The notes below the pieces were generated by a model. The model saw nothing but the letters and a program-made list of their open reading frames with translations, did no database searches and was not told where the DNA came from. Shown in pieces: positions 10,568 to 29,268 of a stretch of DNA of 46,977 nucleotides. The position numbers were made by a program, and so were the translations under genes. Source of the DNA: an uncultured Parabacteroides sp. (GTDB taxonomy: Bacteria > Bacteroidota > Bacteroidia > Bacteroidales > Tannerellaceae); assembly GCA_964610765.1 (NCBI GenBank), contig CAZSWS010000014.1, positions 1 to 46,977 of the forward strand, given 5' to 3'. The first letter of the stretch is position 1, and each line of letters starts with the position of its first letter.

Positions 10568-10710
10568 AAAGTCAGGTTTACTTCACTAAATCAGACCGTT
10601 TTATCCAGATAGAACAAAGCTAGAGCATAAAAAAGATGTATGTTTACGACATAATTATCCCTTTGTCCACGAGCGGCAAGGTTTAATTTTATGAACACTG
10701 CATAACATAC

Positions 10711-11424: not shown

Positions 11425-13029
11425 TTATTCCTTTGTAGGTTCTGGTGCCGGAGGATCATTTTTGGCAGAGGCTAGGGGAATGGTAACCTCGTTTTTCTCC
11501 TCTTTCATCAAGTCTCCCTTTAAATAATTAGGCAAGTTCATCCCTGCCATATTAAACAAGTCATTCAAAGGAGGTACCGACTTCATCAAACCGGATACAA
11601 AATTAGCCGTTGTCGTATTCCCATTGCCTGAAGGATTGTTGGGAGAATCCCATACCGTAATCTTATCAATCTTGATATTTTTAATGGCTTCAACCTGTGT
11701 CTTAACCAGTTCCGGAAGTTTCTCAATCAATAACAGTTGATAAGCCGCCGTTGTATCACCTTGGGCTGCGCTTACTACATCCCGATATCCTTCGGCCTGC
11801 TTGGTTAATATTTCATACAAACCTCGCGCTTCAGCACTCATCTTGGCATAAATAGCATCTGCCTCACCACGCGCTTGCTCTCTCACCTTTTCTGCTACTG
11901 CCTGAGCTTCAATTACAATCTTTTGTTTCTCTATTTCAGCAGGAACAACCACATTGGCTATTTGGGTTGACCGCTCTCTTTCCGAACGCGCCAACTCTGC
12001 TTTTTGCTCTGCCAAATAAGCTTCTTCGAGCGCCTTTGCCTGTTGTACTTTTTCCGCAGCCACTGCAAGACGGGCAGCCTCAGCTTCTTTTTCTCTTCTG
12101 GTAGCATCTGAAGCAGCAATCGTAATCTTGGCCTCATTCTCACCTTGTACAGCAACAGCATTAGCTCCGGCAGTTTGCACACGCGTGTCTCTGCTAGCTT
12201 CAGCTTTACCAATCGATTCATCCCTCATAGCGCCGGCAATGCTTACCTCTCTATCTTTTTGAGTAATCGCGATTTTCACATCCCGATCCCGATTAGTCTC
12301 CGCTATCCGGACATCTTTCTCTCTGTCTGCAACAGCCTTACCGGTCTCTCCCATTTTTTCTTGCTCGGCCACACTTACCTTCGCTTCGTTGATAGCCTTG
12401 GCAGCTGCTTCTTTTCCTAATGCTTCAATATAGCCGGATTCATCATTTATGTCAGTTACGTTCACGTTGATAAGCTTCAAGCCTATTTTTCGAAGTTCCG
12501 TATCTACATTCTTTGATATATTATCCAAAAACTTATCTCGGTCTGAATTGATTTCTTCAATCATCATCGTAGCAATCACCAAACGTAGCTGTCCAAACAA
12601 GATATCTTTTGCCAACTCCTGTATTTGAGCAGTTGATAAGCCCAATAAACGCTCGGCGGCATTATTCATATTCTCTTTTTCAGTCGAAATAGCAATGGTA
12701 AAACGACAAGGTACATCTACCCGTATGTTTTGTTTACTCAACGCACTGGTCAAGTTTGCTTCAATCGATATAGGCTTTAAATCCAGGTAAGCGAAATCTT
12801 GAAAAACCGGCCAGATAAAAGCACCTCCACCATGAATACATCTCGCTGAAGTACCTCCTGTACGACCATAAATCACAAGTATCTTGTCGGATGGACAACG
12901 CTTATATCGGGAAGCTAGCGCCAAAAACGTAACAAATACAACTACGACCAACACTACGACAATCATCATCGTACTATCTCCCATGAACAAATCAGTGGGC
13001 TCGAACAACAACACATTTCCTACCTTCAT
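11425..13029 (-). CDS. Flotillin family protein (SPFH/Band 7 domain).
   Basis: 534 aa. It has an N-terminal TM helix, then an SPFH domain, then a long Ala/Glu-rich heptad coiled-coil (EAEAARLAVAAEKVQQAKALEEAYLAEQKAELARSERE). This is the canonical flotillin architecture. Confidence 0.85.
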   Translation of the reverse strand: MKVGNVLLFEPTDLFMGDSTMMIVVVLVVVVFVTFLALASRYKRCPSDKILVIYGRTGGTSARCIHGGGAFIWPVFQDFAYLDLKPISIEANLTSALSKQNIRVDVPCRFTIAISTEKENMNNAAERLLGLSTAQIQELAKDILFGQLRLVIATMMIEEINSDRDKFLDNISKNVDTELRKIGLKLINVNVTDINDESGYIEALGKEAAAKAINEAKVSVAEQEKMGETGKAVADREKDVRIAETNRDRDVKIAITQKDREVSIAGAMRDESIGKAEASRDTRVQTAGANAVAVQGENEAKITIAASDATRREKEAEAARLAVAAEKVQQAKALEEAYLAEQKAELARSERERSTQIANVVVPAEIEKQKIVIEAQAVAEKVREQARGEADAIYAKMSAEARGLYEILTKQAEGYRDVVSAAQGDTTAAYQLLLIEKLPELVKTQVEAIKNIKIDKITVWDSPNNPSGNGNTTTANFVSGLMKSVPPLNDLFNMAGMNLPNYLKGDLMKEEKNEVTIPLASAKNDPPAPEPTKE

Positions 13030-13074
13030 TTTTATTTGATTAAAGTTTCTATATAACGACTACTTAACACACAA

Positions 13075-13647
13075 TCATCCAAAAGGAACGACTATTAAAA
13101 TACCATTTTCAACATCGACCACTTTAATAAGCACTCCGACCTCAATGCTTTCTTCATTGCGGGTTATCGCATTTAATTCATGTGTAGAACCTCTGACACT
13201 GATAAATACTTTTCCCTTCCCCTGTCCTTTAGCGGGGATTTTCAGATAAACATCTCCGGTCTTTCCAATGGTCTCTTCTATCTTAAACGTATTATCTTCG
13301 GCAAATTTCATCAAGGTTCGAAAGATGACGAAAAAGACAGCTACAAACACCAAGCCTACAACCACAGCTACAACAGCCACCAAGACCTTCGAGCTAAAGG
13401 CATTGTAAAGCGTCGCTCCGGTCCAACCGAAGCCCAGTAAAAAGTTGATTAAGTTTCTTAATGAAAAGAGTTGAAAGGGAGATTCCCCACCATCGAGGTT
13501 ACCATCAAAATCAGCATGCACACCCGTATCGGCATCAGAACCTATAAAAGTCATAACAGATTGAATAATAAAAACAAGGCTAACTCCTAAGGCGATATAC
13601 CAATAAGCTTGATGCATGGCATCCATAGTTCCGAAAAATTCTTTCAT
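13075..13647 (-). CDS. NfeD/YqiJ-like membrane protein, the usual partner of flotillin.
   Basis: 190 aa with N-terminal TM helices and a C-terminal beta-rich (OB-fold-like) tail. It lies immediately upstream of flotillin on the same strand, as in E. coli yqiJ-yqiK. Confidence 0.55.
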   Translation of the reverse strand: MKEFFGTMDAMHQAYWYIALGVSLVFIIQSVMTFIGSDADTGVHADFDGNLDGGESPFQLFSLRNLINFLLGFGWTGATLYNAFSSKVLVAVVAVVVGLVFVAVFFVIFRTLMKFAEDNTFKIEETIGKTGDVYLKIPAKGQGKGKVFISVRGSTHELNAITRNEESIEVGVLIKVVDVENGILIVVPFG

Positions 13648-13856
13648 GGCTGGTCGTATTTATTATGATATATAAATATCTATTACTATTACACAAACCT
13701 ACTCAATAATAAAGATATATTCAATAGTTGATTCAGCTTTTTTCACGCTTATAAACCAAATTTTATGCAACAAATTGTTTTCAACTGAAAGATTTTCTAG
13801 CTTTACAGATAAGAACAAATTTTGCTCTTAAACCACTGCAAACAAACAAGAACCTT

Positions 13857-16142
13857 ATGTACAAAGCTATTATCTCTTTCACCTTCTTCGCACTTTCCTT
13901 TTATTCCGGTTTGGCACAAGCTCCGAGTCATTTAACGACCGACTTAATCGAGCATACCGATCGTGTATTTCTAAACGGATATCCCTCAGGGGTATCTTTA
14001 ACTGAACTAAATTCAACAATCGAACCGTATCAAACCGTTCTAATCCGGAGCACCCATCCACGACTGGGCTGGGTGATGAACAGCGAGAAAACAAATGTTA
14101 TACAATCAGCTTATCGGATATTAATGGCTAGTTCAGCAGAACTTTTAGAAGAAGGCAAGGCAGATATTTGGGATAGTGGAAAAACACAAGATGAAAACTC
14201 CACAGCAGTAAAACAAAGTGGCAAAGCCTTAAAAACATCTAGCATCTATTTTTGGAAAGTAAAAACATGGGATCAAGATGAATTAGAAAGTGAATACTCA
14301 CACATAAGAAGCTTCCGAACAGCCGATGTTTTAGACGGAAAAACTGCCGTATATCCACTGCAAAAAACCGACGAACACCCCATCCTCATAACCCCTATAA
14401 AAAAGGGAGACACCTATATTGATTTCGGGAAAGTAGCCTTTGGGCAATTGAAGCTAACCCTCACTTCACAAAAAACAACCGATACCATTCATATTCACCT
14501 AGGTGAACATGCCATCAATGGTCGAGTGGATAGAAAGCCAAAAGGCAGCATCCGATATACACACTATCGACTTCCTTTGATGCAAGGCACACACACTTAC
14601 CTGTTAAAAATAAAACCGGATAAGCGTAATACGGACACGTCAGCCAACGAAAGTGGTGTCAAACCCATCTTTATGCCGGACTACATAGGTGAAGTCCATC
14701 CGTTTAGGTATTGTGAAATAGAAAACTACACGACACCTATTCAAACAAACGACCTAATAAGACAATCTGTTCATTATCCCTTTAACGATTCGGCTGCCTA
14801 TTTTCATTCGTCTGATAGCGTGTTAAATAAGGTATGGGAGCTATCTAAGTATTCCATCAAAGCTACCTCTTTTGCCGGCATCTATGTGGATGGCGACAGA
14901 GAACGAATCCCGTATGAAGCAGATGCCTTAATCAATCAACTTTGTCATTACGCAGTCGATCGCGAATTTTCTATGCCTAGATACAGTCATGAATATCTAA
15001 TCCATGAAGCGACATGGCCTACCGAATGGATTATGCAATCGGTTATTATGGCTTGGAATGATTATCTATATACAGGCAACACCGTTTCGCTTGAACGATA
15101 TTATGAAGACCTTCAATCAAAAACTCTACTATCTCTCAAAGAAACAAACGGACTGATTAGCACAAAGACTAATAAACAAACGCCTGAACTACTCCAATCC
15201 ATTCATTTCAAAGGAAAAGCCCTAAGAGATATTGTTGATTGGCCTCAAAGCGGAGTGCTAGGTGTTGAAAAGTCAGAGGCCGGCGAAGCGGATGGTTATG
15301 TTTTAACAACATACAATACGGTCGTTAATGCGTATCATTATTACGTTTTAAAGCGCATAAGTGAAATAGCTCATCTTTTAGGACATCAAGAAGATGGTCT
15401 ATTATATGCTCAAGAGGCTGAAAACGTAAAGCAACAAATCAACCGCCTACTCTTCAATAAGAAAAAAGGTTATTATCAAGATGGAATAGATACTGACCAC
15501 GCATCGTTGCATGCTAACATGTTTCCTTTGGCATTTGGAGTAGCCCCCCAAAAACATCAACAAACTGTAATGGAATTCATCCGCTCCCGAGGAATGGCTT
15601 GTAGCGTATATGGCTCACAGTTTTTACTGGACGCCGTGTACGATGCGGAAGATGCCGCCTATGGATTATCTTTGCTTACCTCTACCGGCGAACGCAGCTG
15701 GTATAACATGATTCGCACAGGAGCAACCATCACGACTGAAGCATGGGATACAAAATATAAGCCCAACCAAGACTGGAATCATGCATGGGGAGCTGCTCCT
15801 GCCAATTTAATTCCCCGTAAACTAATGGGCATCGAGCCAATAGAGCCGGGATTTAGCAAAATACGCATTAAACCACAACCGGGTAGTTTGCGCCATGCAA
15901 ATATTCGTATTCCTACCATTCGTGGAGATATTGGAGTTTCATTTGAAAACATACCACAACAACATTTCAGCATCACCGTAGAAGTACCCGCAAACAGTAC
16001 CGCCGAGGTCTGGTTACCTCTGCCTGGCAAGAAATATCACCTAACCATTAACGGCACAGCCCAAAAAGGGGTCATCGTTAATGCATTTGTCAAAGTAACT
16101 GTTGGGTCGGGGAAGCATCAGTTACTGATTGAGGGGAGGTGA
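13857..16142 (+). CDS. Alpha-L-rhamnosidase-like glycoside hydrolase (GH78 family), secreted.
   Basis: 761 aa with a signal peptide. YFWKVKTWDQDELESEYSHIRSFRTA matches the GH78 N-terminal domain signature (Y.W.V.VWD...SFETG). A later (alpha/alpha)6-like segment is present (YHYYVLKRISEIAHLLG...GYYQDG). The last 93 nt are duplicated 10 kb downstream. Confidence 0.6.
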   Translation: MYKAIISFTFFALSFYSGLAQAPSHLTTDLIEHTDRVFLNGYPSGVSLTELNSTIEPYQTVLIRSTHPRLGWVMNSEKTNVIQSAYRILMASSAELLEEGKADIWDSGKTQDENSTAVKQSGKALKTSSIYFWKVKTWDQDELESEYSHIRSFRTADVLDGKTAVYPLQKTDEHPILITPIKKGDTYIDFGKVAFGQLKLTLTSQKTTDTIHIHLGEHAINGRVDRKPKGSIRYTHYRLPLMQGTHTYLLKIKPDKRNTDTSANESGVKPIFMPDYIGEVHPFRYCEIENYTTPIQTNDLIRQSVHYPFNDSAAYFHSSDSVLNKVWELSKYSIKATSFAGIYVDGDRERIPYEADALINQLCHYAVDREFSMPRYSHEYLIHEATWPTEWIMQSVIMAWNDYLYTGNTVSLERYYEDLQSKTLLSLKETNGLISTKTNKQTPELLQSIHFKGKALRDIVDWPQSGVLGVEKSEAGEADGYVLTTYNTVVNAYHYYVLKRISEIAHLLGHQEDGLLYAQEAENVKQQINRLLFNKKKGYYQDGIDTDHASLHANMFPLAFGVAPQKHQQTVMEFIRSRGMACSVYGSQFLLDAVYDAEDAAYGLSLLTSTGERSWYNMIRTGATITTEAWDTKYKPNQDWNHAWGAAPANLIPRKLMGIEPIEPGFSKIRIKPQPGSLRHANIRIPTIRGDIGVSFENIPQQHFSITVEVPANSTAEVWLPLPGKKYHLTINGTAQKGVIVNAFVKVTVGSGKHQLLIEGR
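16050..16142 (+). repeat. Copy A of a 93-bp perfect direct repeat. It forms the 3' end of the GH78 gene, stop codon included.
   Basis: The segment from AACGGCACAGCCCAAAAAGGGG through GAGGGGAGGTGA is identical base for base to 26285..26377. Confidence 0.9.
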
Positions 16143-16516
16143 AAAGAATCTAAACAAAATATTTATTAAGAAAATATAGTCATTCTGCAAATAAAAAATC
16201 ATATTTCAAAGAGAAAGTGTCATTTATTTGAGTAATATTGAATGCAATTATGGTTACTTTACATAAATAAATATAACACAATAAAAATTACAAAAACTAA
16301 ACTGAATTTAGTTTATCACCTTCCAAGTATCAAAAGTATTAAAATTCATAGCAGAATTTAAACTAACAATATTTTAAGAAATACCTAAAATCACTCTTAA
16401 ACAAAAGATTAACCAAAAAAAGAATCGCATAAAAACACAAACATCTTACTATTGATTTAAAAAAACTTAACTTTTAAAGCTAAACAAATACTACTATTAA
16501 CCTAAAGTGATATCTC

Positions 16517-17875
16517 ATGAAAAAGAACGCTTTCCTCATCATTTTTCCACTTCTGTTTTTTTTCGCATCATGTGGAGATGACAAAAAAGACTTTGATGCG
16601 TACAATGTACCTTACAACCCCAGTCTTCCAATAGAAATTGCTTCTATTGGCCCTAAAGTAGGAGGCTTGGGAACTCGGGTAGTTATTTCTGGCAGTAATT
16701 TTGGAAATGATACATCTAAAATCAAACTCTATTTCAATACCAAAGAAGCTTTAATTCTTAAAGCTCAAACTAATGCTATTTATGCAATGGTACCTAAACA
16801 ACCTGGAGAATATTCCACAATTACTGTTGCTATTAAAGAAGGAGAAAATGCTGATGGAACTCCAAAATACAAAGAAGCGGTTTTAGAAAACATTCAGTTT
16901 AAATACAATATAAAAGCCACGGTCACCACAGTTGCAGGAATATATAATGAAGCCGTCGCAAAAGACGGCCCGGCTCTTGAAGCTTCTTTTCAACGCCCTG
17001 TTATGCTTTCTGTTGATAACACTGGAGTTATTCTTATTTCTGACGATGATGCTAAACGAGTGAGGTTTCTATCTCTTCAAGACAATAAAGTAACGACTGT
17101 ACTTTCAGGCATGAACTCTCCTTGGCAAAACACATTTAATTATAAGTCTGATAAGTTTTTTGTTATTGAGCGCTATACGACTTTACGTCCACATTTATTT
17201 ACTGGATTATATAAAGAAGACAACTGGCAAGAGCCAGATATTTTCTACGACCAAAAAGACGCTTCAGGGAACTACATTGCAGGCAACATGCGACATTATG
17301 GTATAGCTGCTGATGATGATTATATATATGTGCTATCTGAATATGGGACTCGATTTATTAGGGTTCATCAAATAACACGTAAAGTTGAACTAATAGGTCA
17401 AAACCTGAATATGGACTCTTGGTCACATATAGCCATGAATAAAAAAAATGGCATGATGTACATCACAGCTGAAGGAAGGGGACGTTTATACAGGCTTAAT
17501 CCTTATCATATACCAGCAGGTCACACAACACCTTGGCTGACACAGGCAGACATAGAACATATTGTAGGGACTGGTAGAGGTCCCGCTAAAGAAGGCAATG
17601 GAAAATCCGCTCAGCTAGGAGAAATTGAAGGATTAGCCTGTGACCAAGAAGGAAATGTATATTTAGCGGATTATACCAATCATATTATATGGAAAATTGA
17701 TGAGGAATTCAATGCAACCATTTTTGCTGGCGTACCAGGAACTTCAGGCTATCTAGATGGAAAACCAAAAGAGGCATTGTTCAATAGACCTTATGACGTC
17801 TCAGCAACACCGGATGGCATTCTCTATGTTGCCGATACCTTCAATAGACTTATCAGATGTGTAGCTGTACAATAA
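16517..17875 (+). CDS. Surface lipoprotein with an IPT/TIG-like domain and NHL-repeat beta-propeller.
   Basis: 452 aa. The lipobox is FFFASCGDD. The N-terminal Ig-like segment (VVISGSNFGNDTSKIKLYFN) resembles IPT/TIG. Repeated TV.G/YVAD-type NHL-like blades follow. This is the common first gene of Bacteroides PULs. Confidence 0.5.
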   Translation: MKKNAFLIIFPLLFFFASCGDDKKDFDAYNVPYNPSLPIEIASIGPKVGGLGTRVVISGSNFGNDTSKIKLYFNTKEALILKAQTNAIYAMVPKQPGEYSTITVAIKEGENADGTPKYKEAVLENIQFKYNIKATVTTVAGIYNEAVAKDGPALEASFQRPVMLSVDNTGVILISDDDAKRVRFLSLQDNKVTTVLSGMNSPWQNTFNYKSDKFFVIERYTTLRPHLFTGLYKEDNWQEPDIFYDQKDASGNYIAGNMRHYGIAADDDYIYVLSEYGTRFIRVHQITRKVELIGQNLNMDSWSHIAMNKKNGMMYITAEGRGRLYRLNPYHIPAGHTTPWLTQADIEHIVGTGRGPAKEGNGKSAQLGEIEGLACDQEGNVYLADYTNHIIWKIDEEFNATIFAGVPGTSGYLDGKPKEALFNRPYDVSATPDGILYVADTFNRLIRCVAVQ

Positions 17876-17893
17876 TCTCAAAAAGTAACCATA

Positions 17894-20800
17894 ATGAAAA
17901 AATATATATTTTTAATACTGACACTCGCATTCTTCACACCGTTGACTCTTATGGCACAGACTCAGGTGAGAGTCAAAGGAGTAGTCACAGATGCTGAAAC
18001 ACATGAAACCCTAGTTGGAGTTACTGTTAGTCTAAAAACTGACAACACTAAGGCCGTAATTACCAACTCAGAAGGCGCATATGAAATTTATGCTAACGCA
18101 GGATCAACATTGGTGTTTACATTTATTGGCTCCAAACCAAAAGAAGTAAAAATAGGTGACGCTTCTAATCAAACTATTAATATTGAAATGGAAGCTAGTA
18201 GTCAAATGCTAGAAGAAGTAAGCGTTGTGGCATATGGAACACAACGAAAGGTAAGTGTAGTAGGAGCTATCACAACAGTCAAGCCGGATGCCCTCAATGT
18301 TTCAGGGGTTACATCCATTTCAAATGCCTTGGCAGGCCGAGTTGCGGGACTAATAGGTATTCAGCGAAGTGGAGAGCCGGGGCAAGACGTTTCCGAGTTT
18401 TGGATTCGAGGAATAAGCACCTTTGGGGCAAACAGTAGCGCATTAATTTTAATTGATGGGATAGACAGAGGTAGCTCCAGTTTGAACGAGTTAGCACCTG
18501 AAGATATAGAAAGTTTTTCTATACTTAAAGACGCTACTGCTACTGCGGTATATGGTGCAAGAGGGGCAAATGGTGTTGTATTAATTAACACCAAACGTGG
18601 ACAAGAAGGTCGAATCAATATTAATGTAAATATTAAGACTATGATTGAAGAACTTCCTCGTCTGCCCAAATATTTAAGAGCTTATGATTATGCTGTTTTA
18701 GCAAATGAAGCAAGAATTATTAGGGGAGAAAAGTCCGCCTATGCTCCAGAAGTATTTGACATTATTAAATACAATATGGACAATGACTTATACCCGGATG
18801 TGAATTGGCAAGATGAAATCTTAAAAAATCAGACATGGGGCGTACAGGGCAATGTTAATATTTCGGGGGGAAGCAATTTAGCTCGTTATTATATGAGCGC
18901 ATTTTATAGAACGAACGATGCTATTTACAAACAATACGGGATGGAGCGTTATCACTCAAATGTAAGGAGAAATCAGTTTACATTTAGAAGCAACATTGAT
19001 GTTAATGTTACCAAAACAACATTAGTAAGTTTGTTGCTCTCTGCCAAATTAGTAGATATGAATCGGCCAGGAGCTGGAACAACATCAGACATATGGGCAG
19101 CACAGGCTAATTTAACACCACTAACTGTACCTATACGCTATTCTAATGGACAGTTCCCATCATATGGGAAATCAGATAACACTTCTCCATCCGTTTTATT
19201 AAATGAAACTGGTTTTCTTACAGATCGAGATAATTCTATAGAATCTTTATTAACATTAGAACAAAATCTAGATTTTATTACTGAAGGATTAAAGGTATCC
19301 GGATCTGTTTCTTTTGATAATTATAATAATCACATCACTAGTCGAATCAAAGGACCTGATTTGTATAAAGCCATAGACAGAAACTGGAATACCGGAGAGC
19401 TTATTACTCAAAAAACGGTTGTTGCAAAACCCATGACTTTCTCCAGTTCTTCCTACGGAACAAGAACAATATATATGGAAGCAAAGATGGAGTACAATGG
19501 AGTTTTTAATGAAAAGCATAGAGTTGGAGGTCTATTCCTTTATAACCAAAAGGACTACCAAAGAACAGATGCCAATAACGAACTAAGCTCTATTCCAAGA
19601 CGTAACCAAGGAATAGCAGGTCGCTTAACCTATTCTTTTGATGACAAATACTTTGTTGAAGGGAACTTTGGATATAATGGTTCGGAAAACTTTCCAAAAG
19701 GGCAACGATTTGGTTTTTTCCCATCTTTCGCTTTAGGATATGTTATTTCCAACCATGCGATAGTAAAAGAAAAGCTTCCTTTTATTGATATGCTTAAACT
19801 ACGTTACTCATACGGTTTAGTTGGTAATGATCAAATTAGGAATGACGTTCGCTTTCCCTATCTGACAACCGTAAACATGTCTGCATCAAGCTATGTATTT
19901 GGAGACCAAAAGCAAACCAATGTTGGTGCCGTCACAGACGGGGTGTTGGGTTCTACCGGTTTAGTTTGGGAAAAAGCTATTAAGCAAAACTATGGAATAG
20001 ATATTACCTTATTTGATAATTTTAATATTACAGTAGATGCTTTCTTGGATCGACGTAACAATATCTTTATGCAACGCGTCACCCTACCCGGCACTATAGG
20101 AGTTGGAACAAAACCATGGGGTAATGTAGGAAAAATGAAAAGTTGGGGAGCAGATGGTACTATCTCATATATGCACCAATTTAAAAACGGATTAATGCTT
20201 GAAGGGCGTGCTAATTTCACACTTACTAGAGACAAAATTATAGATTATGATGAAGTTTTACCTAGATACCCTTACCTAGCTAAAAAAGGTACGAGCAATA
20301 ACGTAACTCGCGGATTAGTTGCTCTTGGTTTATTCAAAGATGAAGATGATGTAAAAAACAGTCCTACACATTTTGGGAAAGTGTATCCAGGAGATATAAA
20401 ATATCAAGATATAAATGGTGATGGACGAATTGACAATGACGATATCATACCGATTGGAAATTCTAATGTGCCCAAACTGCAGTACGGTTTTGCTCTAAGT
20501 GCCAATTGGAAGGGCTTTGACCTAAGTGCCTTTTTCAGAGGCGCAAGCCAAGTTGATTACTTCCTTGGAGGAAGCGGATACTACCCGTTTGAAGGAGGAG
20601 TAACCGGCAATGTTTTAACCATTGTAAATGAGCAAAAAAATCGTTGGACTCCGGCTTCCTACTCTGGTGACCCGAATACCGAAAATCCGAATGCAAGATT
20701 TCCCCGTTTAACCTATGGAAGTAACTCCAATAACAATCGAAAATCTTCATTTTGGTTAGCTGACGCCAGCTATTTAAGGTTTAAAACACTAGAGATAGGG

Positions 20801-20983
20801 TATACCATCCCTAAAAAAGTGGCTAACAAAATCAAAATGAGCAACTTAAGGGTATCCGTCATCGGAGATAACCTACATGTCTGGGACAATGTTAAACTGT
20901 GGGACCCGGAACAAGCCAGTGACAATGGAGCTGTTTATCCCCTTACACGCTCCTATTCATTAGTTTTACAATTATCATTCTAA
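17894..20983 (+). CDS. SusC/RagA-family TonB-dependent outer-membrane transporter.
   Basis: 1029 aa. It has a signal peptide, a carboxypeptidase-regulatory-like N-terminal domain (VKGVVTDAETHETLVGVTV), a TonB-box region EEVSVVAYGTQRK, a plug, and a C-terminal beta-barrel ending in F. Confidence 0.9.
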   Translation: MKKYIFLILTLAFFTPLTLMAQTQVRVKGVVTDAETHETLVGVTVSLKTDNTKAVITNSEGAYEIYANAGSTLVFTFIGSKPKEVKIGDASNQTINIEMEASSQMLEEVSVVAYGTQRKVSVVGAITTVKPDALNVSGVTSISNALAGRVAGLIGIQRSGEPGQDVSEFWIRGISTFGANSSALILIDGIDRGSSSLNELAPEDIESFSILKDATATAVYGARGANGVVLINTKRGQEGRININVNIKTMIEELPRLPKYLRAYDYAVLANEARIIRGEKSAYAPEVFDIIKYNMDNDLYPDVNWQDEILKNQTWGVQGNVNISGGSNLARYYMSAFYRTNDAIYKQYGMERYHSNVRRNQFTFRSNIDVNVTKTTLVSLLLSAKLVDMNRPGAGTTSDIWAAQANLTPLTVPIRYSNGQFPSYGKSDNTSPSVLLNETGFLTDRDNSIESLLTLEQNLDFITEGLKVSGSVSFDNYNNHITSRIKGPDLYKAIDRNWNTGELITQKTVVAKPMTFSSSSYGTRTIYMEAKMEYNGVFNEKHRVGGLFLYNQKDYQRTDANNELSSIPRRNQGIAGRLTYSFDDKYFVEGNFGYNGSENFPKGQRFGFFPSFALGYVISNHAIVKEKLPFIDMLKLRYSYGLVGNDQIRNDVRFPYLTTVNMSASSYVFGDQKQTNVGAVTDGVLGSTGLVWEKAIKQNYGIDITLFDNFNITVDAFLDRRNNIFMQRVTLPGTIGVGTKPWGNVGKMKSWGADGTISYMHQFKNGLMLEGRANFTLTRDKIIDYDEVLPRYPYLAKKGTSNNVTRGLVALGLFKDEDDVKNSPTHFGKVYPGDIKYQDINGDGRIDNDDIIPIGNSNVPKLQYGFALSANWKGFDLSAFFRGASQVDYFLGGSGYYPFEGGVTGNVLTIVNEQKNRWTPASYSGDPNTENPNARFPRLTYGSNSNNNRKSSFWLADASYLRFKTLEIGYTIPKKVANKIKMSNLRVSVIGDNLHVWDNVKLWDPEQASDNGAVYPLTRSYSLVLQLSF

Positions 20984-20994
20984 TAATATTCGTC

Positions 20995-23016
20995 ATGAAA
21001 AATAAAATAAAAAAGCAATTCTCAAAAATAGCAGCAACCTTAATCGTTTGTTTTAGCTGCTGTTTTCAGTCATGCGATTTCCTTGATATAGACCCCTATA
21101 TAGCAGACTTATTTACATTAGACACCGTATTTAAAAAGAAGGAGTATACCGAGAAATATTTAAATAATATTTACTCATATCTTGTTGACTATGGATCAGC
21201 AAGTGCCTGGACACCTAATTCAATGCCCTACTCACTAATTACGGATGAAGGAATCGCTGGATACAAAAGACACACACACAACTATAACTACTTCTGCAAC
21301 AACGAAATGAAAGCAGAAAGCTTGGAAAACTTTGACCGTTGGGATTATTTTTATGAAGGAATTCGAAAAGCTAACACCTTTATTCTACGAGTTAATGAAT
21401 GTCAAGAGGTTTCAGCCTTACAACGATCTGAATGGATGGGAGAGGCTAAGTTTATCAAAGCAAATCTATACTTTGAATTAATGCTTGCACATGGTCCAAT
21501 CCCTATTGTACCGGATGAACCCGTAAGCTTTGATACTCCTATAGAACAAATGATGCTTGAGCGAAATACTTGGGATGAATGCAATGATTATGTGAGCAAT
21601 CTTTTAGAAGAATCGATCAAACTCCTACCTTACAGTATTAGAGATAATTCACAAATGGGAAAACCAACAAAAGCTTCTGCTATGGCTGTCCTTTCCCGAC
21701 TTACATTATATACAGCTAGCCCTTTATACAACGGACAAAACTCCGAGTTCTCCAACTTTAGAAATGAAGCAGGTATACCTTATCTAAATCCGGAAAAAAA
21801 CATGGAAAAATGGGCTATTGCAGCTGCTAATGCTAAACGATTATTAACCGATTCTAATTACGAGAACCTTTCTCTTTACACGGTACCTAAAATGGAGAAT
21901 ACACCTCTGCCTCCTGTTCCAGGACATGAACAAGCAGACTTCCCAAACGGTGTAGGAGGAATTGACCCCTATCATTCATATGCTGACATGTTTAACGGAG
22001 AATGCGTCTTGGCTTCAACTAATCTGGAAATATTATTTTCTAAGCAAAATGGCACGACAGGCACCCGCTATAGCATTCCCGGGATGATAGATGGCTGGGG
22101 AGTATTTTTCATTCCACAAAGTCTAGTTGACGCATATTACATGGTAGATGGTAGAGACATTAGCGATGCTAGCGATAAATATCCTTACGAAAATGGCTTC
22201 ACAAACAATGAAGTCACTTTTTCCGGCGCAAAAGATGGGAATGGCTTCACCATATTAAGCGAAACCTATAAATGGTATGTCAATAGAGAAATGCGTTTTT
22301 ATGCAACCATAGGATACAACAATTCATATTATCCATCAACATCTACTCCACCGGACAAAATAGACCAGCAAGATGGAAAAATTGCAAAGTTTTACAGAGA
22401 CTCTAAAGGGGGAAAAGACTATGCCTTAAACCGTCCATCAGGTGAGGCAGAAGAATATCCTATGACCGGATATCTATGTCGCAAGTTCGTTCATTATGAA
22501 GACTCCTATATTTCTGGAGGACGCGAAAAAACAAAATACACCATCTCTTATCGTTTAGCCGAGGTATATATGAATTATGTTGAAGCTATGAACGAATTAG
22601 ATCAATCATATACTATTGGGGAAATTACTGTATCTAGAGATGTACAAGAAATAAAAAAATACTTCAATAGAGTAAGATACAGGGTTGGTTTACCCGGTAT
22701 AACCGATGCTGATGTCGCCAATGTTGAAAGAATGAGAGAGCTTATAGAACGTGAACGAAGAATTGAATTTGCATGGGAAAGTCGACGATACCATGATTTA
22801 CGTCGTACAAAAAGAGCTATTATTTTCGAGAATGCACCAATTACCGGCTGTGACGTAGATGTAACAACGGCTAATCCTGAAGCTTACTACAACATCATAC
22901 AGGTGAAAGAACGGAACTGGATTTACAAAGTATTTACCAACAGGCAAACGTTTCTTCCTATTCCTAAAAGAGAAGTAGATAAAAACAGGAAACTAGATCA
23001 AATGCCCGGTTTCTAA
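20995..23016 (+). CDS. SusD/RagB-family nutrient-binding outer-membrane lipoprotein.
   Basis: 673 aa. The lipobox is CFSCCFQSC. The all-alpha/TPR-like composition fits SusD-like proteins. It lies immediately downstream of SusC. Confidence 0.85.
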   Translation: MKNKIKKQFSKIAATLIVCFSCCFQSCDFLDIDPYIADLFTLDTVFKKKEYTEKYLNNIYSYLVDYGSASAWTPNSMPYSLITDEGIAGYKRHTHNYNYFCNNEMKAESLENFDRWDYFYEGIRKANTFILRVNECQEVSALQRSEWMGEAKFIKANLYFELMLAHGPIPIVPDEPVSFDTPIEQMMLERNTWDECNDYVSNLLEESIKLLPYSIRDNSQMGKPTKASAMAVLSRLTLYTASPLYNGQNSEFSNFRNEAGIPYLNPEKNMEKWAIAAANAKRLLTDSNYENLSLYTVPKMENTPLPPVPGHEQADFPNGVGGIDPYHSYADMFNGECVLASTNLEILFSKQNGTTGTRYSIPGMIDGWGVFFIPQSLVDAYYMVDGRDISDASDKYPYENGFTNNEVTFSGAKDGNGFTILSETYKWYVNREMRFYATIGYNNSYYPSTSTPPDKIDQQDGKIAKFYRDSKGGKDYALNRPSGEAEEYPMTGYLCRKFVHYEDSYISGGREKTKYTISYRLAEVYMNYVEAMNELDQSYTIGEITVSRDVQEIKKYFNRVRYRVGLPGITDADVANVERMRELIERERRIEFAWESRRYHDLRRTKRAIIFENAPITGCDVDVTTANPEAYYNIIQVKERNWIYKVFTNRQTFLPIPKREVDKNRKLDQMPGF

Positions 23017-23049
23017 AGCACATATGATAAACTCTAAAAAAACAATTCT

Positions 23050-23946
23050 ATGAAACTACATATTTTTAAAATCGCTATTTTCTTCTTAGCACTAGGAGTT
23101 TTTGCTTCATGTGACAGCAATCCTGTTGTCGATTTTGGAGAGCAGTATAAAAAGACCATCTATATTGTAAACTCAAGGGGAATGCTGTATAGTCAAGAGC
23201 ATTTTTACGACAATGAAGAAGGTGTTATTGAGATATCTGTTTACTGTGGTTCATCAGAACCCATTAAAAAAGACATCAATGTCACACTTAAAATCAACCC
23301 GGAAGCCTTAGACTCACTAAACAAGTTAAATTCCCTAGGAGATCCTTTATATGTCAATAAGACTATATTACCAGAAAGCCACTATGACTTTTCAAAAGGA
23401 ACTGTTACAATAAAGGCTAAAACGCAATATACACCACTCCAAATACCGATTATTACCAAAGGACTTGATGCGGATATTACGTATACTTTACCCATATCAA
23501 TTGTTTCTAATGATGCAAACTATGATATCAATCCTGAATTAAAAACAATCATATACGAGCTTAGAATGGTAAATGGATATTCCGGTAGTTTTAGTGGAAG
23601 TTCGACAGAACTACCTAAGACTATACGCTCAGTTCAGCCGACATTGAAAGCTATTTCTTCTAACACAGTACGCATGCCAATACATAACTTATCATCTAAC
23701 ATTCAAAACTTAGATACGAACTTTATGTTATTAACTATTGGAAGTGATAGTACAAGCGTCAGCATCTCTCCTTGGAAAAATGCTAAAGTCACAGATTTGG
23801 GAGGAAGCACCTTTGACAAGAAACGAAGAAATTATACCTTAAATTATTCTTTTGAGAACAAAGATGGGGTAGCTTTATCAATTCTTGAAAAAATATCTGA
23901 TATAAACTATACGGATCCTGACGAAGAAGAAGAAATTGATGAATAA
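23050..23946 (+). CDS. PUL-associated surface lipoprotein (SusE/F-position; DUF1735-like beta-sandwich).
   Basis: 298 aa. The lipobox is VFASCDSN. The body is beta-rich and the C-terminal tail is acidic (DPDEEEEIDE). Its position after SusD supports the call; the family assignment is tentative. Confidence 0.4.
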   Translation: MKLHIFKIAIFFLALGVFASCDSNPVVDFGEQYKKTIYIVNSRGMLYSQEHFYDNEEGVIEISVYCGSSEPIKKDINVTLKINPEALDSLNKLNSLGDPLYVNKTILPESHYDFSKGTVTIKAKTQYTPLQIPIITKGLDADITYTLPISIVSNDANYDINPELKTIIYELRMVNGYSGSFSGSSTELPKTIRSVQPTLKAISSNTVRMPIHNLSSNIQNLDTNFMLLTIGSDSTSVSISPWKNAKVTDLGGSTFDKKRRNYTLNYSFENKDGVALSILEKISDINYTDPDEEEEIDE

Positions 23947-24048
23947 AAATTATCCCCATCAATAGAAGTATCACACTCTTTTCACTATAAAAATTGTTGG
24001 TGATATACACAGATTATTCCTGATAAGTTTAAAGTATATATTTTAACT

Positions 24049-26223
24049 TTGAATCTTATCAGGAATAACTTATTTCATCATATGCCATCGGGCAGAAAGA
24101 CATTTCTTATTTTTTTAACCACATTAAGCTTTGCAGATATGAAAAAAAGATTACCAATTTCACTCATTGTTTTCTCTCTCATAAGTATCACCCAACTACT
24201 AGCCTTATCCATCAACAACACCCCCGACTATAAGCAGCCTGTTTATCATCTTTCCAACCTAGCAGTATCCATGGATGGCTACGATAATGAAATACGAACT
24301 GGGATTAGAATTTTAAAAGACGAGTGGACTTTAGAAGCTTGGGTAAAAGGAGATGATAAAAGCTGGAAAGAATATGAAGTTATCATTGGAGGGGGTGAAT
24401 ACAGCGAATTAAATTCTTGTGACAACATGCCTCTTGTACTGAAAGAAGGAAAATTACATTGCAAGGGGGCTAATATTTCCGCCTCTACGGTACTAGATGA
24501 TCAATGGCATCATATTGCTGCAAGTTGTGATGGCAAACAAACCACACTTTTTCTTGATGGGACAATAGTAGCTCAAGCGGATACAGCTATAGCAATCCTT
24601 CCTGGCGCGATAGGCTCAAACAAAAAAGGACAAACTTGGGGAGGTTTAATTGACGAGGTTAGAATCTGGGACACAGCCTTATCTCAAGCAATACTCAAAA
24701 AGTGGAAAAACAAATCACTAGAAGCTAGCCATCTACATATAAATAACTTAATCGCATATTATCCTTTTGATGACTTTAAAGATGAATTATCTATTAACTG
24801 GGTTGGTCAAGGTCATCAATCATATCATATTCGTAATGGAAGAATAGACTTTTACGGTTCACTTTCCAAAGCATATACAGTAGTTAATGACAATCCTCAG
24901 TTCATCCCTTATAAAGGCAATCAAACAGTATTTAATGCTGTCAGTGTTAATAGTGAGTGGGATGTAGACCAAAATGCTAAGGACTGTCAGATAATCAAAT
25001 TAAGAATAGCTGTCAATGGAAATGACAACCCCCTAAAACTAACTAAAGTAGTTCTCGATTTATCAGAAAACACGTCATTAAACGATATTTCTAAGATTCA
25101 TTTATATCAAACCGGAAAATATCCAAATTCGAAAGAGAGAAATAAATTATGTGGTACAGGTGTATATCCCGGCAGAAAAAAAACACTTGAAATAAATCCG
25201 AGTGAAAACACTTACTTATCACAAGGCATTAACTATTTCTTAATCACATTTGACATAGATAAAAAAGCTAAAATCAATAATACTATTCATGCATCTATTT
25301 CCTCATTCACTCTAAACAACAAAACATATATTCCAGAAAAAGACCACGATTTTATCAAACAAAAAGTGGTAAAAAACAGTAGCGAAGATGCTAATATTCT
25401 GAAGGTTTTACAGTGGAATATATGGCATGGGGGTGTACATTTAGGTAAACATCAAGGAAGAGAACGCATTATAGATTTGATACAAAAAACGAATGCTGAT
25501 ATCATAACAATGCAAGAAGGCTATGGTGCACAAGATACAATCGCCTCATCAATCGGTTTCTACCTACAAACTAACTCCCCTAAAGACAATTTGGCACTTC
25601 TTAGCAGATATCCTATTAAACAACGTATTATATCAGAAGAGCCATTCAAATCAAACCCTGCAATTATTTCATTACCAAATAACAAACGTATATTAGTTAA
25701 CGATTGTTGGCTACGCTACTCCCATAATCCGGAATATACAAGTTTATATGCAAGCAACGGGTTAGATCCAGACTTATGGATCAGAGAAGATTCTCTCCTA
25801 CCTTTAGTTGATATCAAGAACCTAATAAGCAAAGATATAGAACCTTATATGGAAGAACATGACATGCCTATTATTATTGGAGGTGATTTTAATTCCGGGA
25901 GCCATTTAGACTGGACTGAAAAAGCCAAACATCTCCATAACGGTTATGGTCCTGTGAATCTTCCTGTATCTCAACACCTAGTATCTGAAGGATTTAAGGA
26001 TAGTTTCAGAGAAGCATACCCTGATGAAGTTTATTATCAAGGGGGAACATTTGCTGTAATTTTTGGACAGCTGCAAGACTCTAGGATAGACTACATCTAT
26101 TACAAAGGGAAAGGCATGAAAGTTCTTGCATCTAAGATTATCCGTTCATCATACGAAATTGATGATGTATGGGCATCTGATCATGCTGCTGTTATTACTG
26201 TTTTTGACACAAGCGAAAAATAA
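24049..26223 (+). CDS. Secreted LamG-like lectin domain fused to an endonuclease/exonuclease/phosphatase (EEP) family phosphoesterase.
   Basis: 724 aa; the probable true start is MKKRLPISLIVFSL at 24139, which has a signal peptide. The N-terminal segment WTLEAWVK...LFLDGTIVAQAD...DEVRIWDTALSQ matches the LamG/ConA-like fold. The C-terminal LKVLQWNIWHGG, DIITMQEGYG, GGDFNSGSHLDW and WASDHAAV match EEP catalytic motifs. Confidence 0.65.
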   Translation: MNLIRNNLFHHMPSGRKTFLIFLTTLSFADMKKRLPISLIVFSLISITQLLALSINNTPDYKQPVYHLSNLAVSMDGYDNEIRTGIRILKDEWTLEAWVKGDDKSWKEYEVIIGGGEYSELNSCDNMPLVLKEGKLHCKGANISASTVLDDQWHHIAASCDGKQTTLFLDGTIVAQADTAIAILPGAIGSNKKGQTWGGLIDEVRIWDTALSQAILKKWKNKSLEASHLHINNLIAYYPFDDFKDELSINWVGQGHQSYHIRNGRIDFYGSLSKAYTVVNDNPQFIPYKGNQTVFNAVSVNSEWDVDQNAKDCQIIKLRIAVNGNDNPLKLTKVVLDLSENTSLNDISKIHLYQTGKYPNSKERNKLCGTGVYPGRKKTLEINPSENTYLSQGINYFLITFDIDKKAKINNTIHASISSFTLNNKTYIPEKDHDFIKQKVVKNSSEDANILKVLQWNIWHGGVHLGKHQGRERIIDLIQKTNADIITMQEGYGAQDTIASSIGFYLQTNSPKDNLALLSRYPIKQRIISEEPFKSNPAIISLPNNKRILVNDCWLRYSHNPEYTSLYASNGLDPDLWIREDSLLPLVDIKNLISKDIEPYMEEHDMPIIIGGDFNSGSHLDWTEKAKHLHNGYGPVNLPVSQHLVSEGFKDSFREAYPDEVYYQGGTFAVIFGQLQDSRIDYIYYKGKGMKVLASKIIRSSYEIDDVWASDHAAVITVFDTSEK

Positions 26224-26284
26224 TTTCAGTAAGTTCCCTTGGAAAACATAATCAACCTATCATAAAAGACTAAAAAGAGAGTAA

Positions 26285-26377
26285 AACGGCACAGCCCAAA
26301 AAGGGGTCATCGTTAATGCATTTGTCAAAGTAACTGTTGGGTCGGGGAAGCATCAGTTACTGATTGAGGGGAGGTGA
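26285..26377 (+). repeat. Copy B of the 93-bp perfect direct repeat. It is an orphan duplicate of the GH78 3' end.
   Basis: Identical to 16050..16142. It lies in the convergent intergenic space 44 bp from the BCCT stop codon. Confidence 0.9.
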
Positions 26378-26421
26378 GGATTATCGGATTAATATAAGGG
26401 AGACCTTATAAAGTATGGGAT

Positions 26422-28443
26422 TTATCTCCTGCTGTCGATGACTAAAAGTTCGTTTTTATCGTCAGATATCAGGCTGATGAATCGCTCGTATTCTCTAAGC
26501 ACATCAATAATTACTTCCTCCTTGGTCATATATTGGATATCGTTTCCTTTGCGTCCATCGTTGAAGTACGTAATGGGGATATAGACCTTTCCCGCCTCAA
26601 CATCCGGTGTGTTATCATCATCAATCAGATACTCGGAAATAGTTTGACGCTCTGCAACTACTCCATAGCGGAAATTGCGTATTTTATCATGCTTGATGAA
26701 TAGCTCTATGGACAAATCGGTGTTTTTCCCAAGAATGATTTTTGATTCTATATTATTCAAAGACAGTTCTTTTTGTAATTCTTCAAAAGCATCTTTAACT
26801 GTTTCACCTAAAAAGGTGCGTACATCTTTCTTTTCCGAAAAAGTAAGTATTCTATTTAATCGCTCTTTCCATTTGCTTGCATCCCAGCTCATGCTTCCAT
26901 ACGGCAACTTAGTATTATGAAACAGATGGTCTATTTGCAATGCTTTCCACAAACAATAGCAAAGCAGCAACATGATTAACCCAAACGGCAAGGCGGAAAT
27001 TAGCGTCATAGTTTGCAAAGAGGGAAGTCCGCCTGATCGTAGCAGAGCCAATGAAAGAATCACCAATAAGAATCCCCAAAAGACATTTTGCCATTTAGGT
27101 GTTTCTCTTTTTCCTCCGGACGAGATACTATTCATTACCAGTATACCTGAATCGGCTGAAGTAACAAAAAAGACTGCAATCATCAATATCGCTAGGACAT
27201 TAAGAACCGATGTTAATGGGAAATACTCAAAAAATCGGAACAATAAAATATCTGTATTGTCTGCCATCTGACTAAGCGCTCCATTTCCTACATATTTGTC
27301 AATCCATACAGCACTGCTACCAAATACCGTCATCCATATAAAGTTAAACAAGGAAGGAACCAGCAAAACAGCAACAATATATTCTCGTATAGTTCGCCCT
27401 TTCGAGATGCGGGCTATAAATAAGCCCACAAAAGGAGCCCACGATATCCACCATGCCCAATACAAAATAGTCCAGCCTGAAAACCACTCTTGCGCCTCTG
27501 TTTCATAAGCAAACGTATTGAATGTCAAGCTAGGCAAGTTGCTGATATAATATCCGATTCCTTCACTGAAGGTACTTAGTATATAGATGGTAGGTCCCAT
27601 CAACAAAATGAAAATCATTAAGATACCGGCAAGATACATATTCAACTCACTCAACCGCTTGATACCTTTATCAACCCCGGTCAGGGCAGAGGTTACTGCA
27701 ATAGCCATCACTACGACCACAATCATCGCCTGAAATGTAAAACTAATTTCAGGCACAACGCCAATACTTTTCAAACCGGCATTCAACTGAACCACACCAA
27801 ACCCCAACGTAGTAGCAATACCAAAAAACGTACTACACAAAGCAAACGTATCAACGACATTACCAACGGGACCATATATTTTATCTTTCAACAAGGGGTA
27901 CAACCCACTCCGTATAGCTAAAGGCAACTTATACCTATAAGCAAAATAGGCTAATACCAAGCCCATCACAGCATAAATTGCCCACGCATGTATCCCCCAG
28001 TGGAAAAATGTGTATAATTGAGCTTCTTTGGCACGAAGTGCTGTATCTTCTATCGCCGGATGCGCATAGTGAGAGATAGTTTCAGCCACACCAAAATACA
28101 TCAATCCAATCCCCATCCCTGCGGCAAAAAGCATGGCTATCCACGAGAAAAAGCTATACTTCGGTCTGGAATCATCAGAACCCAGCCTAATATTCCCTAA
28201 TTTACTAAGGGCTATTATGATTAGAAAAAGGATGAATATGGTTGTTAGAAGCACATACACCCAATTTAGATTTTTAGAAAAATACGTTTGAATAACCGTG
28301 AGCAACTCATTGGCCTTCTGAGGGAAAATAAAACAATAAAGTGAGATAAGTAGAATCACTATCAATCCGGGTAGGGCGACTGATTTTGTAAATGTTGTTT
28401 TAAAAAAAAGGGCTTCTTTCAGTTTCTTTATTAATTTCATCAT
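26422..28443 (-). CDS. BCCT-family (betaine/carnitine/choline) transporter.
   Basis: 673 aa polytopic membrane protein. The Trp-rich signature WTILYWAWWISWAPFVGLFIARISKGRTIREY is typical of BCCT transporters. A long cytoplasmic C-terminal extension is present. Confidence 0.85.
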   Translation of the reverse strand: MMKLIKKLKEALFFKTTFTKSVALPGLIVILLISLYCFIFPQKANELLTVIQTYFSKNLNWVYVLLTTIFILFLIIIALSKLGNIRLGSDDSRPKYSFFSWIAMLFAAGMGIGLMYFGVAETISHYAHPAIEDTALRAKEAQLYTFFHWGIHAWAIYAVMGLVLAYFAYRYKLPLAIRSGLYPLLKDKIYGPVGNVVDTFALCSTFFGIATTLGFGVVQLNAGLKSIGVVPEISFTFQAMIVVVVMAIAVTSALTGVDKGIKRLSELNMYLAGILMIFILLMGPTIYILSTFSEGIGYYISNLPSLTFNTFAYETEAQEWFSGWTILYWAWWISWAPFVGLFIARISKGRTIREYIVAVLLVPSLFNFIWMTVFGSSAVWIDKYVGNGALSQMADNTDILLFRFFEYFPLTSVLNVLAILMIAVFFVTSADSGILVMNSISSGGKRETPKWQNVFWGFLLVILSLALLRSGGLPSLQTMTLISALPFGLIMLLLCYCLWKALQIDHLFHNTKLPYGSMSWDASKWKERLNRILTFSEKKDVRTFLGETVKDAFEELQKELSLNNIESKIILGKNTDLSIELFIKHDKIRNFRYGVVAERQTISEYLIDDDNTPDVEAGKVYIPITYFNDGRKGNDIQYMTKEEVIIDVLREYERFISLISDDKNELLVIDSRR

Positions 28444-28489
28444 TCAAGTAAAATTTGTCTCGAGATATCTATTTATAAACCCACAGAAC

Positions 28490-28517
28490 CTTTATGCCTT
28501 ACCAAAAAGGCATAAAG
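28490..28517. promoter_or_regulatory. Perfect 11-bp inverted repeat (CTTTATGCCTT / AAGGCATAAAG) in the BCCT upstream region.
   Basis: Seen directly in the sequence. The arms are 28490-28500 and 28507-28517 with a 6-nt spacer, roughly 50-75 bp upstream of the BCCT start codon. It is a candidate operator or 5'-UTR hairpin. Confidence 0.3.
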
Positions 28518-28950
28518 AGGAGTATAAACTAGCTTACTAACCAAATATCTAAATGGAAGAAAATAGAAATGGGTTTGTGTAGTTTTCGAGAAATAAAAAG
28601 GATATTTTCTTCTATCCTCAATTCTTATAGATTCTCGTATGAAGTAGCAAATATATGCAAAAAATCAGGCACTGAAAAATGGAATCAATCTAAGAACAGG
28701 CTCAAAAAACCGTTTTAGACCCGTAAAACCAACGAATCATTTTTCAAAGTCAGGTGTATATTTTGCCCAGTAAGGAGCTTGCTAGGGGCTAATCACTCAC
28801 ACTAAAATCCACACATTCATGAGTGTTAAATACTCTATGAAACATTCAAAAACAAACGAATTCATCCAATACAACCAAAGCCCAAAACTGCCAAATTGAC
28901 AGCTCCAAGGACAAGAGCAACGCATTGACTAACAGCTGATTAAAAGCACT

Positions 28951-29094
28951 ATACCGTTTTATAAAAAAGACTATATTGAAATTCAAAAAAGACTATAGAC
29001 TTTTTAGTAAAACACTATACCCTTTTTAAGAAAAGTCTATAGTCTTTTTTCTCTGACACAATGGCAGTATTTTTATTTCTAAAAAAACGGTATT
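28951..29094. repeat. Nested inverted-repeat element. Outer arms are 10 bp and inner arms a perfect 20 bp, with internal direct repeats.
   Basis: The inner inverted repeat is AAAAAAGACTATAGACTTTT (28985-29004) against its reverse complement at 29031-29050. The outer pair is ATACCGTTTT (28951-28960) against AAAACGGTAT (29085-29094). AAAAAAGACTATA also occurs directly repeated at 28964, and CACTATACC(G/C)TTTT occurs twice. Confidence 0.5.
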
Positions 29095-29268
29095 CATATA
29101 AGCTTTTATCAGCTCATACGAACACCGTTCAATCAGTTTTTTTATGTTTATTAAAGTTTAATTTACAGAGAATAGCATTTCACCAGACCAAGGACAGATA
29201 TTTAAATCCATATAAACAATTAAAGAACATTTACTATCGGATACTCTCTGTTCCCCTCTGTAAAATGA

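Follow-up and report, generated by a model that had tools for sequence, protein, structure and literature searches.

How does a nutrient-uptake locus that carries no mobility genes come to lie between a pair of identical copies of a neighbouring gene's end? We address this question in a 46,977-bp stretch of DNA from an uncultured bacterium (Parabacteroides sp.; NCBI assembly GCA_964610765.1, contig CAZSWS010000014.1) of gut or digester origin. This stretch, referred to here as the window, is one entire NCBI contig, and this 47-kb contig is all of the genome that was available. In it, five co-directional genes that form a polysaccharide utilization locus (PUL) follow the gene for a GH78 alpha-L-rhamnosidase and occupy a unique interval of 10,142 bp, the cassette, between two copies of a 93-mer denoted R. 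The block is strain-variable: it is present in some strains and cleanly absent in another. That it is an insertion relative to an ancestral order, in which 44 bp separated the GH78 gene from a convergent BCCT transporter gene, is well supported. We put at about one in two the probability that the block is a non-autonomous cassette flanked by attachment (att) sites, similar to a cis-mobilizable element (CIME), that is exchanged by recombination across the 93-mers through either an integrase supplied in trans or RecA. The features that delimit the locus are as follows.

13857..16142, + strand: GH78 alpha-L-rhamnosidase, 761 amino acids (Pfam Bac_rhamnosid6H, Ig_Rha78A_N and Bac_rhamnosid_C)
16050..16142, + strand: R copy 1 (attL-like), the last 30 codons and TGA of GH78, in frame
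26285..26377, + strand: R copy 2 (attR-like), a non-coding remnant of the GH78 end, preceded by an in-frame TAA
26378..26421, no strand: native GH78–BCCT intergenic gap of 44 bp, the same gap as in the empty site (L083, below)
26422..28443, − strand: BCCT (betaine/choline) transporter, convergent, right flank (Pfam BCCT, 598 bits; NCBIfam)

The two copies of R agree at 93 of 93 nucleotides and share no base of identity past either end. The repeat, its coordinates and the gene calls around it are exactly as an initial annotation of the window had given them, and Pfam and NCBIfam confirm the five co-directional genes that it placed in the interval. The pair is the sole long repeat in the window, other repeat families reaching at most 39 nt and at most 81% identity, and a chance origin of an exact 93-nt match in 47 kb is excluded. 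Copy 1 starts at a codon boundary and ends on the final base of the GH78 stop codon; att identity blocks that restore the end of a gene usually have this form, in frame and ending on the stop codon.

Contigs of the same species (about 99% nucleotide identity) were retrieved by exact-protein look-ups. Two lineages carry the cassette: W, represented by the window, and E, represented by ENA assemblies. In ERZ4248467, the 53-kb SPAdes contig NODE_443 (loci L084, L093 and L099) contains the left flank, copy 1, the cassette, copy 2 and the BCCT gene in a single sequence, and its R copies are told apart by 3 single-nucleotide polymorphisms (SNPs). The same filled arrangement, with its copy 2 junction, is found in ERZ4218736 and ERZ4218132. 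The cassette is further present in three Logan samples, and public runs with the filled allele include SRR19859951, SRR10769902 and SRR12619558. Four junction sequences are identical across assemblies; the cassette starts with AAAGAATCTAAAC... and ends with ...AAAAAGAGAGTAA.

A chimeric contig joined through the shared 93-mer, an assembly artefact that the initial annotation had itself named as fatal to its proposal, is effectively refuted by these data. Two observations speak for it: the repeat is perfect in the window, and in Logan the de Bruijn contigs built from short reads are indeed interrupted by it. One of these (L085) consists of the cassette alone, 10,202 bp that are 100% identical to the window and end 30 nt into R on each side, and L085, L087, L001 and L101 all stop either 30 nt into R or at a SNP-defined k-mer limit, breaks that a k = 31 graph predicts. 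NODE_443, however, is an independent assembly that spans the locus with both SNP-distinct copies, ERZ4218736 and ERZ4218132 each contain the copy 2 junction, and all four junction sequences are alike.

The empty allele is found in a Logan contig (L083, from SRR30309661) that aligns to positions 12221–16142 of the window and then to 26285–29392 via a single R. Its order is GH78, one R, 44 bp and BCCT, that is, CACCTAACCATT-R-GGATTATCGG, with junctions exactly at the repeat boundaries. The empty site that the initial annotation recommended looking for therefore exists with a single 93-mer, and the order it had proposed as ancestral, with the GH78 stop codon 44 bp from the BCCT stop codon, is seen directly. 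The hairpin that it placed in this gap is also present (26393–26410, a 7-bp stem, TATAAGG-GAGA-CCTTATA). The GH78 gene is intact in filled and empty alleles alike.

A further contig (L082, Logan SRR8925759), which shares the left-flank haplotype of L083, ends on the last base of R (locus positions 8204–8296). At k = 31, the contig of a filled allele should end 30 nt into R, and that of an empty allele should continue into BCCT; L082 fits neither expectation, and in SRR8925759 something besides the two simple alleles may follow R.

In which direction did the change go? Insertion is indicated because copy 2, a GH78-end fragment that serves no purpose, lies exactly where GH78 ends in the empty allele, and because the cassette is compositionally distinct and about ninefold younger than its flanks. 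GC content at third codon positions (GC3) is 0.27–0.32 in all 5 cassette genes and 0.33–0.48 in the 24 other genes of the window, with no overlap. Synonymous divergence (pS) between W and E, calculated by the Nei–Gojobori method, is 0.038 over 14 flanking genes (each at least 0.011; GH78 0.043, BCCT 0.047) and 0.0044 over the 5 cassette genes (range 0–0.0073). Counting all SNPs, the 10,142-bp cassette has 18 differences, and the flanks have about 226 over 24.4 kb (binomial p = 3e-17). The low pS and low GC3 together mean that the genealogy of the cassette is younger than its surroundings and separate from them. GH78 relatives among GTDB species representatives reach at best 66% identity and none is syntenic with Band7, NfeD or BCCT, so these genomes provide no outgroup with which to polarize the event; relatives of the BCCT protein in JGI metagenomes are at most 63% identical and show no synteny.

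The opposite direction, in which the filled arrangement is ancestral, the PUL is a native neighbour of GH78, the empty allele is a deletion and the repeat is an unrelated local duplication, is in our view very improbable. A 93-bp direct repeat would suffice for a RecA-mediated deletion whose product has exactly the structure of L083, and of the three haplotype classes sampled, two carry the filled allele. Nevertheless, a GH78 fragment 44 bp from BCCT makes sense only if GH78 once abutted BCCT, and neither the ninefold deficit in cassette pS nor the GC3 values, which are lower in all five cassette genes than in every other window gene, would be expected of native neighbours. In other species, homologous four-gene cores (SusD 69–81% identical) occur in unrelated contexts with other fifth genes, never beside GH78 or BCCT. 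The R of the empty allele, moreover, is not derivable from the lineage E copies by one crossover.

This last point rests on three variable positions within R, numbered 1–93 from its first base. Both W copies read T47/G66/G84, as does the single R of L083. E copy 1 reads C47/G66/G84, in which T47C changes GTA to GCA (valine to alanine), and E copy 2 reads T47/A66/A84, in which G66A (AAG to AAA) and G84A (GAG to GAA) both fall at third codon positions and are synonymous in the GH78 frame. The E copies thus differ from each other at 3 of 93 positions. The initial annotation had taken perfect identity as a sign of a recent event; the identity holds within W, and the argument fails across the species because of the differences in E. 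The E copies fit one reciprocal exchange inside R between a native C47/A66/A84 allele and an incoming T47/G66/G84 cassette, with the crossover placed between positions 47 and 66. Alternatively, the crossover could lie to the left of position 47, with copy 1 mutating once thereafter, or the two copies of an old duplication could have decayed independently. Synonymous third-position changes in copy 2 are what would be expected of a native coding allele, and not of random decay. Because R matches the local GH78 alleles including their synonymous sites, its sequence suggests a local origin rather than a long-evolved attP.

The distribution of SNPs along the locus is also informative. The left edge is abrupt: the last 1 kb of flank holds 11 SNPs between W and E, which end at 16096 (R position 47), and the next 4.3 kb hold none. 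In the left flank there are three equidistant haplotypes, W, E and L082 plus L083, with 23, 23 and 22 private SNPs, respectively. In the right flank the empty haplotype clusters with E, the two having 20 differences from W in common. As flank haplotypes group differently on the left and on the right, the locus sits within a recombining population. The abrupt left edge, the absence of hitch-hiking of GH78 or BCCT, the SNPs of the E copies and an R that ends exactly on the stop codon all fit an exchange inside R. The flanking neighbours are housekeeping genes (FtsX, UppP, TruB, QueA, HPPK, MetK, acetyl-CoA carboxylase subunits and ArgRS), which we also count in favour of such an exchange.

If exchange across R is correct, the target would be the single R at the GH78 gene end, as in the empty allele, and the incoming DNA would most simply be a circle comprising the cassette and one R, released by R × R excision in a filled genome. 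A crossover within R would then put the cassette right after the GH78 stop codon, and the product would comprise an intact GH78 gene ending in copy 1 and a non-coding remnant, copy 2, beside BCCT; the reverse reaction would restore a precise empty site. As no recombinase is encoded in the cassette, the reaction would need either a site-specific integrase encoded elsewhere and acting in trans, as for CIMEs, or the host RecA acting on 93 bp of homology, as in Campbell-type insertion. We consider these two about equally likely, and the data do not separate them.

Several results weigh against exchange across R. Neither a recombinase gene nor a circular junction was detected; together with the lack of a second site and of recurrent use of GH78 ends, this leaves the site-specific integration proposed in the initial annotation not established. 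Much of the evidence agrees with RecA-dependent Campbell recombination, or with a one-off scar and later homologous recombination. The cassette was seen at a single site and in two clonal backgrounds only, the exact IPT/TIG–NHL protein encoded by its first gene being matched at this locus only, in 5 samples. R is not a recurrent target: the GH78 3′ end is duplicated downstream in 0 of 80 loci of other species, on which basis we rejected a recurrent attachment site at GH78 ends. The suggestion that the 93-mer or cassette might sit at other gene ends found no second example, and searches of JGI metagenomes, IMG/VR, plasmids and phages did not return the 93-mer (the JGI metagenome and IMG/VR searches used the 30-nt core of R and gave 0 matches each). 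An 8-bp inverted repeat within R (positions 45–52 and 70–77) is statistically unremarkable (fold z-score −1.7, not significant), and a structured att core was rejected. The right edge is blurred, with 4 SNPs in the final 112 bp of cassette sequence (26173–26247) and 2 in copy 2, such that the right end of the cassette and copy 2 are about 3% divergent between W and E, similar to the flanks. Patches of SNPs at 20389–20905 and 25070–25182 reflect ordinary mosaic recombination inside the cassette. Finally, DNA that a filled recipient imports from an empty donor would likewise stop at the edge of the indel, which makes sharp edges weaker evidence for transfer bounded by the cassette.

These same results lend tentative support to the main rival history, in which the block is the scar of a one-off insertion and has since remained passive. 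The 93 bp of target would have been duplicated in one event, illegitimate or Campbell-type; as candidates, a larger circular element could have integrated and later lost its backbone, or homology could have facilitated an illegitimate recombination. Ordinary homologous recombination in the flanks would then have spread or homogenized the block between lineages, and RecA would delete it through the repeats, with no dedicated mobility. Such a scar would account for the absence of mobility genes from the cassette and the 47-kb contig, the single insertion site, the GH78 ends not reused in 80 other species, the mosaic SNP patches and the fact that the empty haplotype has one genealogy in its left flank and another in its right. 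The divergence of the E copies and the flank-level divergence of 26173–26368 look as if the duplication predated the split between W and E and the interior was overwritten later; on this sequence evidence, the duplication may be as old as that split. A scar, however, requires that a low-divergence tract starts within about 50–150 bp of the left edge by coincidence, or that the flank re-diversified up to the edge, and no hitch-hiking is seen in GH78 or BCCT (pS 0.043 and 0.047). Backbone remnants are absent, as the leader of the cassette contains spurious small open reading frames (ORFs) only, and we know of no bacterial illegitimate process that routinely yields a 93-bp target duplication ending on a stop codon.

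At the other extreme, the block might be an actively mobile, cargo-only PUL cassette, with a recombinase from elsewhere in the genome or from a helper element recognizing the 93-mer of the GH78 end, excising the block as a circle and re-inserting it into empty strains; we regard this as unlikely. Neither Pfam nor NCBIfam detected an integrase, excisionase, transposase or relaxase/mobilization gene among the ORFs of the 47-kb contig, those of the cassette included, which extends to the whole contig what the initial annotation had said of the interval. Cassette DNA had no match among PLSDB plasmids or INPHARED phages, and the SusD and LamG-EEP proteins matched plasmid-encoded proteins at no more than 35% identity.

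The contents of the cassette are as follows.

16143..16516, + strand: AT-rich cassette leader, 374 bp, 21% GC, no ORF of note
16517..17875, + strand: IPT/TIG–NHL repeat protein, cassette gene 1 (Pfam TIG and NHL)
17894..20983, + strand: SusC/RagA TonB-dependent transporter (TIGR04056, 992 bits; Pfam Plug and CarbopepD_reg_2)
20995..23016, + strand: SusD/RagB lipoprotein (Pfam SusD_RagB and SusD-like_3)
23050..23946, + strand: BT_3987-like/DUF4973 surface protein (Pfam)
24082..26223, + strand: LamG–BNR_assoc_N–EEP (endonuclease/exonuclease/phosphatase) protein, cassette gene 5 (Pfam)
26224..26284, + strand: non-coding cassette tail, 61 bp, with W/E SNPs at 26235 and 26247

Of the features of a PUL, the cassette has an adjacent SusC/SusD pair (TIGR04056, 992 bits; Pfam SusD_RagB). 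It contains no hybrid two-component system regulator, extracytoplasmic function (ECF) sigma/anti-sigma pair or SusR, and its only enzyme is the LamG-EEP protein, for which the start at 24082 is that chosen by gene callers on the ENA and Logan contigs. The nearest non-self relative of SusD is 81% identical. The length of the leader is as first annotated, and its GC content, previously given as roughly 25%, was measured at 21%. The leader shows no homology to related PULs of other species, its sigma-70-like matches are at shuffle level, a promoter and terminator scan detected no TAnnTTTG motif or intrinsic terminator, and an Rfam scan of the interval returned nothing relevant.

Which known systems does the locus resemble? 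An element of the ICE (integrative and conjugative element), IME (integrative and mobilizable element) or NBU type was rejected, as the ORFs of the interval encode no integrase of their own and no relaxase or conjugation domain. A DNA transposon, which makes short target duplications of 2–15 bp, was rejected for lack of a transposase and of terminal inverted repeats and owing to the 93-bp duplication; no inverted repeat joins the cassette ends. An integron gene cassette was rejected because the block is 10 kb long, has five genes where such cassettes usually have a single promoterless ORF, and has no attC-like element. The window contains no tRNA gene, and insertion into a tRNA target was dropped. 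Tycheposons were dropped as an analogue because their defining elements encode integrases.

Elements that insert at gene ends, such as phage 21 and e14 in icd and those that target tRNA genes, have an att site that carries a copy of the gene end and rebuilds the gene, and they encode their own tyrosine integrase. As in those elements, the identity block here reaches the gene end and the gene is rebuilt; by contrast, R is identical or nearly identical to the local alleles, including at synonymous sites. Campbell-type, RecA-dependent insertion of a non-replicating circle is known mainly as a laboratory tool or from plasmid- or insertion-sequence-mediated cointegrates. Its product is the same, with a shared segment duplicated as direct repeats around the insert and reversal through recombination between the repeats, whereas the natural cargo-only circle and the route between cells are only inferred for our locus.

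CIMEs, as defined in one study (PMC5704250, citing Pavlovic 2004 and Bellanger 2011), are att-flanked cargo islands without integration or transfer genes of their own that are moved by an integrase acting in trans. The CIMEs of streptococcal ICESt1/ICESt3-type islands resemble our locus in carrying cargo only between attL/attR-like repeats that include the 3′ end of the target gene, in leaving the target gene intact and in having an empty site with one repeat copy (PMC5704250). They differ in being relatives of resident ICEs with known integrases and in having repeats of about 27 bp (PMC5704250), whereas the repeat here is 93 bp and no related ICE or integrase was found. Our locus also differs in its occurrence in Bacteroidota, its PUL cargo and its lack of backbone remnants, and its mobilization is only inferred. 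It thus shares with CIMEs the direct repeats of a gene end, with a single copy in the empty site, and the absence of integration and transfer genes; descent from an ICE or IME is not apparent, as beyond the five PUL genes there are only the 374-bp leader and the 61-bp tail.

PUL-carrying ICEs of gut Bacteroides (for carrageenan and porphyran) are similar in that a strain-variable PUL lies beside a housekeeping or conserved gene, flanked by direct repeats of which PUL-less strains have a single copy (bioRxiv 10.1101/2020.06.09.142968). Those ICEs are large, encode an integrase and mobilization genes, have repeats of 16–21 bp and have been shown by PCR to circularize (bioRxiv 10.1101/2020.06.09.142968). 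The cassette, by comparison, is 10 kb in length, has no mobility genes and is bounded by a 93-bp repeat that is a coding gene end. In how it would work, the locus comes closest to a CIME or to a Campbell insertion-duplication.

The homologous PULs of other species show which part of the cassette is conserved. The four-gene core (IPT/NHL, SusC, SusD and BT_3987-like) is kept across Bacteroidales and the fifth gene is variable; the compared loci are 16517–26223 of the window, 5430–15610 of L111 and 275–9945 of L114. The LamG-EEP gene is missing from the homologous cores of other species, and nucleotide homology to two of them (L103 and L110) ends at around 23740–23935. In L111, the core is accompanied by a PF01663-type phosphodiesterase, an ECF sigma/FecR pair and an STN-SusC, and in L114 by an M3 peptidase; the phosphoesterase partners hint at a substrate with phosphodiester bonds. 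The existence of a family of mobile PUL cassettes was rejected, as the homologous cores (L103–L111 and L114) have no flanking direct repeats. In a related species whose SusD is 73% identical, six contigs, each from another sample (L103–L108; Logan ERR13998xxx and ERR14048301), end at the same base, 281 bp past the BT_3987-like gene (12951–13231 in L104), which suggests that assembly repeatedly breaks there, at a repeat or at a junction that varies among strains.

Gain and loss of PULs drives niche differences between strains of Bacteroidota, and the documented vehicles are large ICEs, plasmids and plain recombination in the flanks. Here, a complete SusC/SusD locus without mobility genes is bounded by a duplicated gene end and is cleanly present or absent. 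If the cassette moves through its repeats, PULs can circulate as minimal att-flanked cassettes; if it is actively mobile, it would represent a class of non-autonomous integrative elements in Bacteroidota that carries nutrient-uptake loci between strains. Even as a scar only, it would be a clean natural example of an insertion-duplication event. The locus is testable, because filled and empty alleles are available in public read sets, and it allows a trans-acting integrase to be weighed against RecA acting on about 100 bp of homology.

Other differences also separate the same-species contigs. Within the 3′ part of the BCCT gene, 8 SNPs in 43 bp (26593–26635) set W apart from both E and the empty haplotype, and the patch resembles a short import of highly divergent sequence. 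A second cluster, of 5 SNPs, at 26776–26818 is private to L087, and the Logan contigs L086 and L088 begin at 26819. Lineage E has an extra CTAGG after position 7382, between the MetK ORF and the ORF at 7416–7817, and is missing CACTG at 10696–10700, between the PNP_UDP and YkuD ORFs. In the cassette leader, there is a 1-nt difference in poly-A length at 16414.

Elsewhere in the window, ArgRS is 81% identical to Parabacteroides proteins and 87–88% identical to other relatives, from which the organism is placed as an uncultured species of Tannerellaceae. Downstream of a TPR/AraC-type regulator (35233–37029), a cluster at 37688–43214 encodes proteins of 456 and 460 amino acids without a Pfam match, a TackOD1-domain protein (40452–41876) and a GT2 glycosyltransferase.

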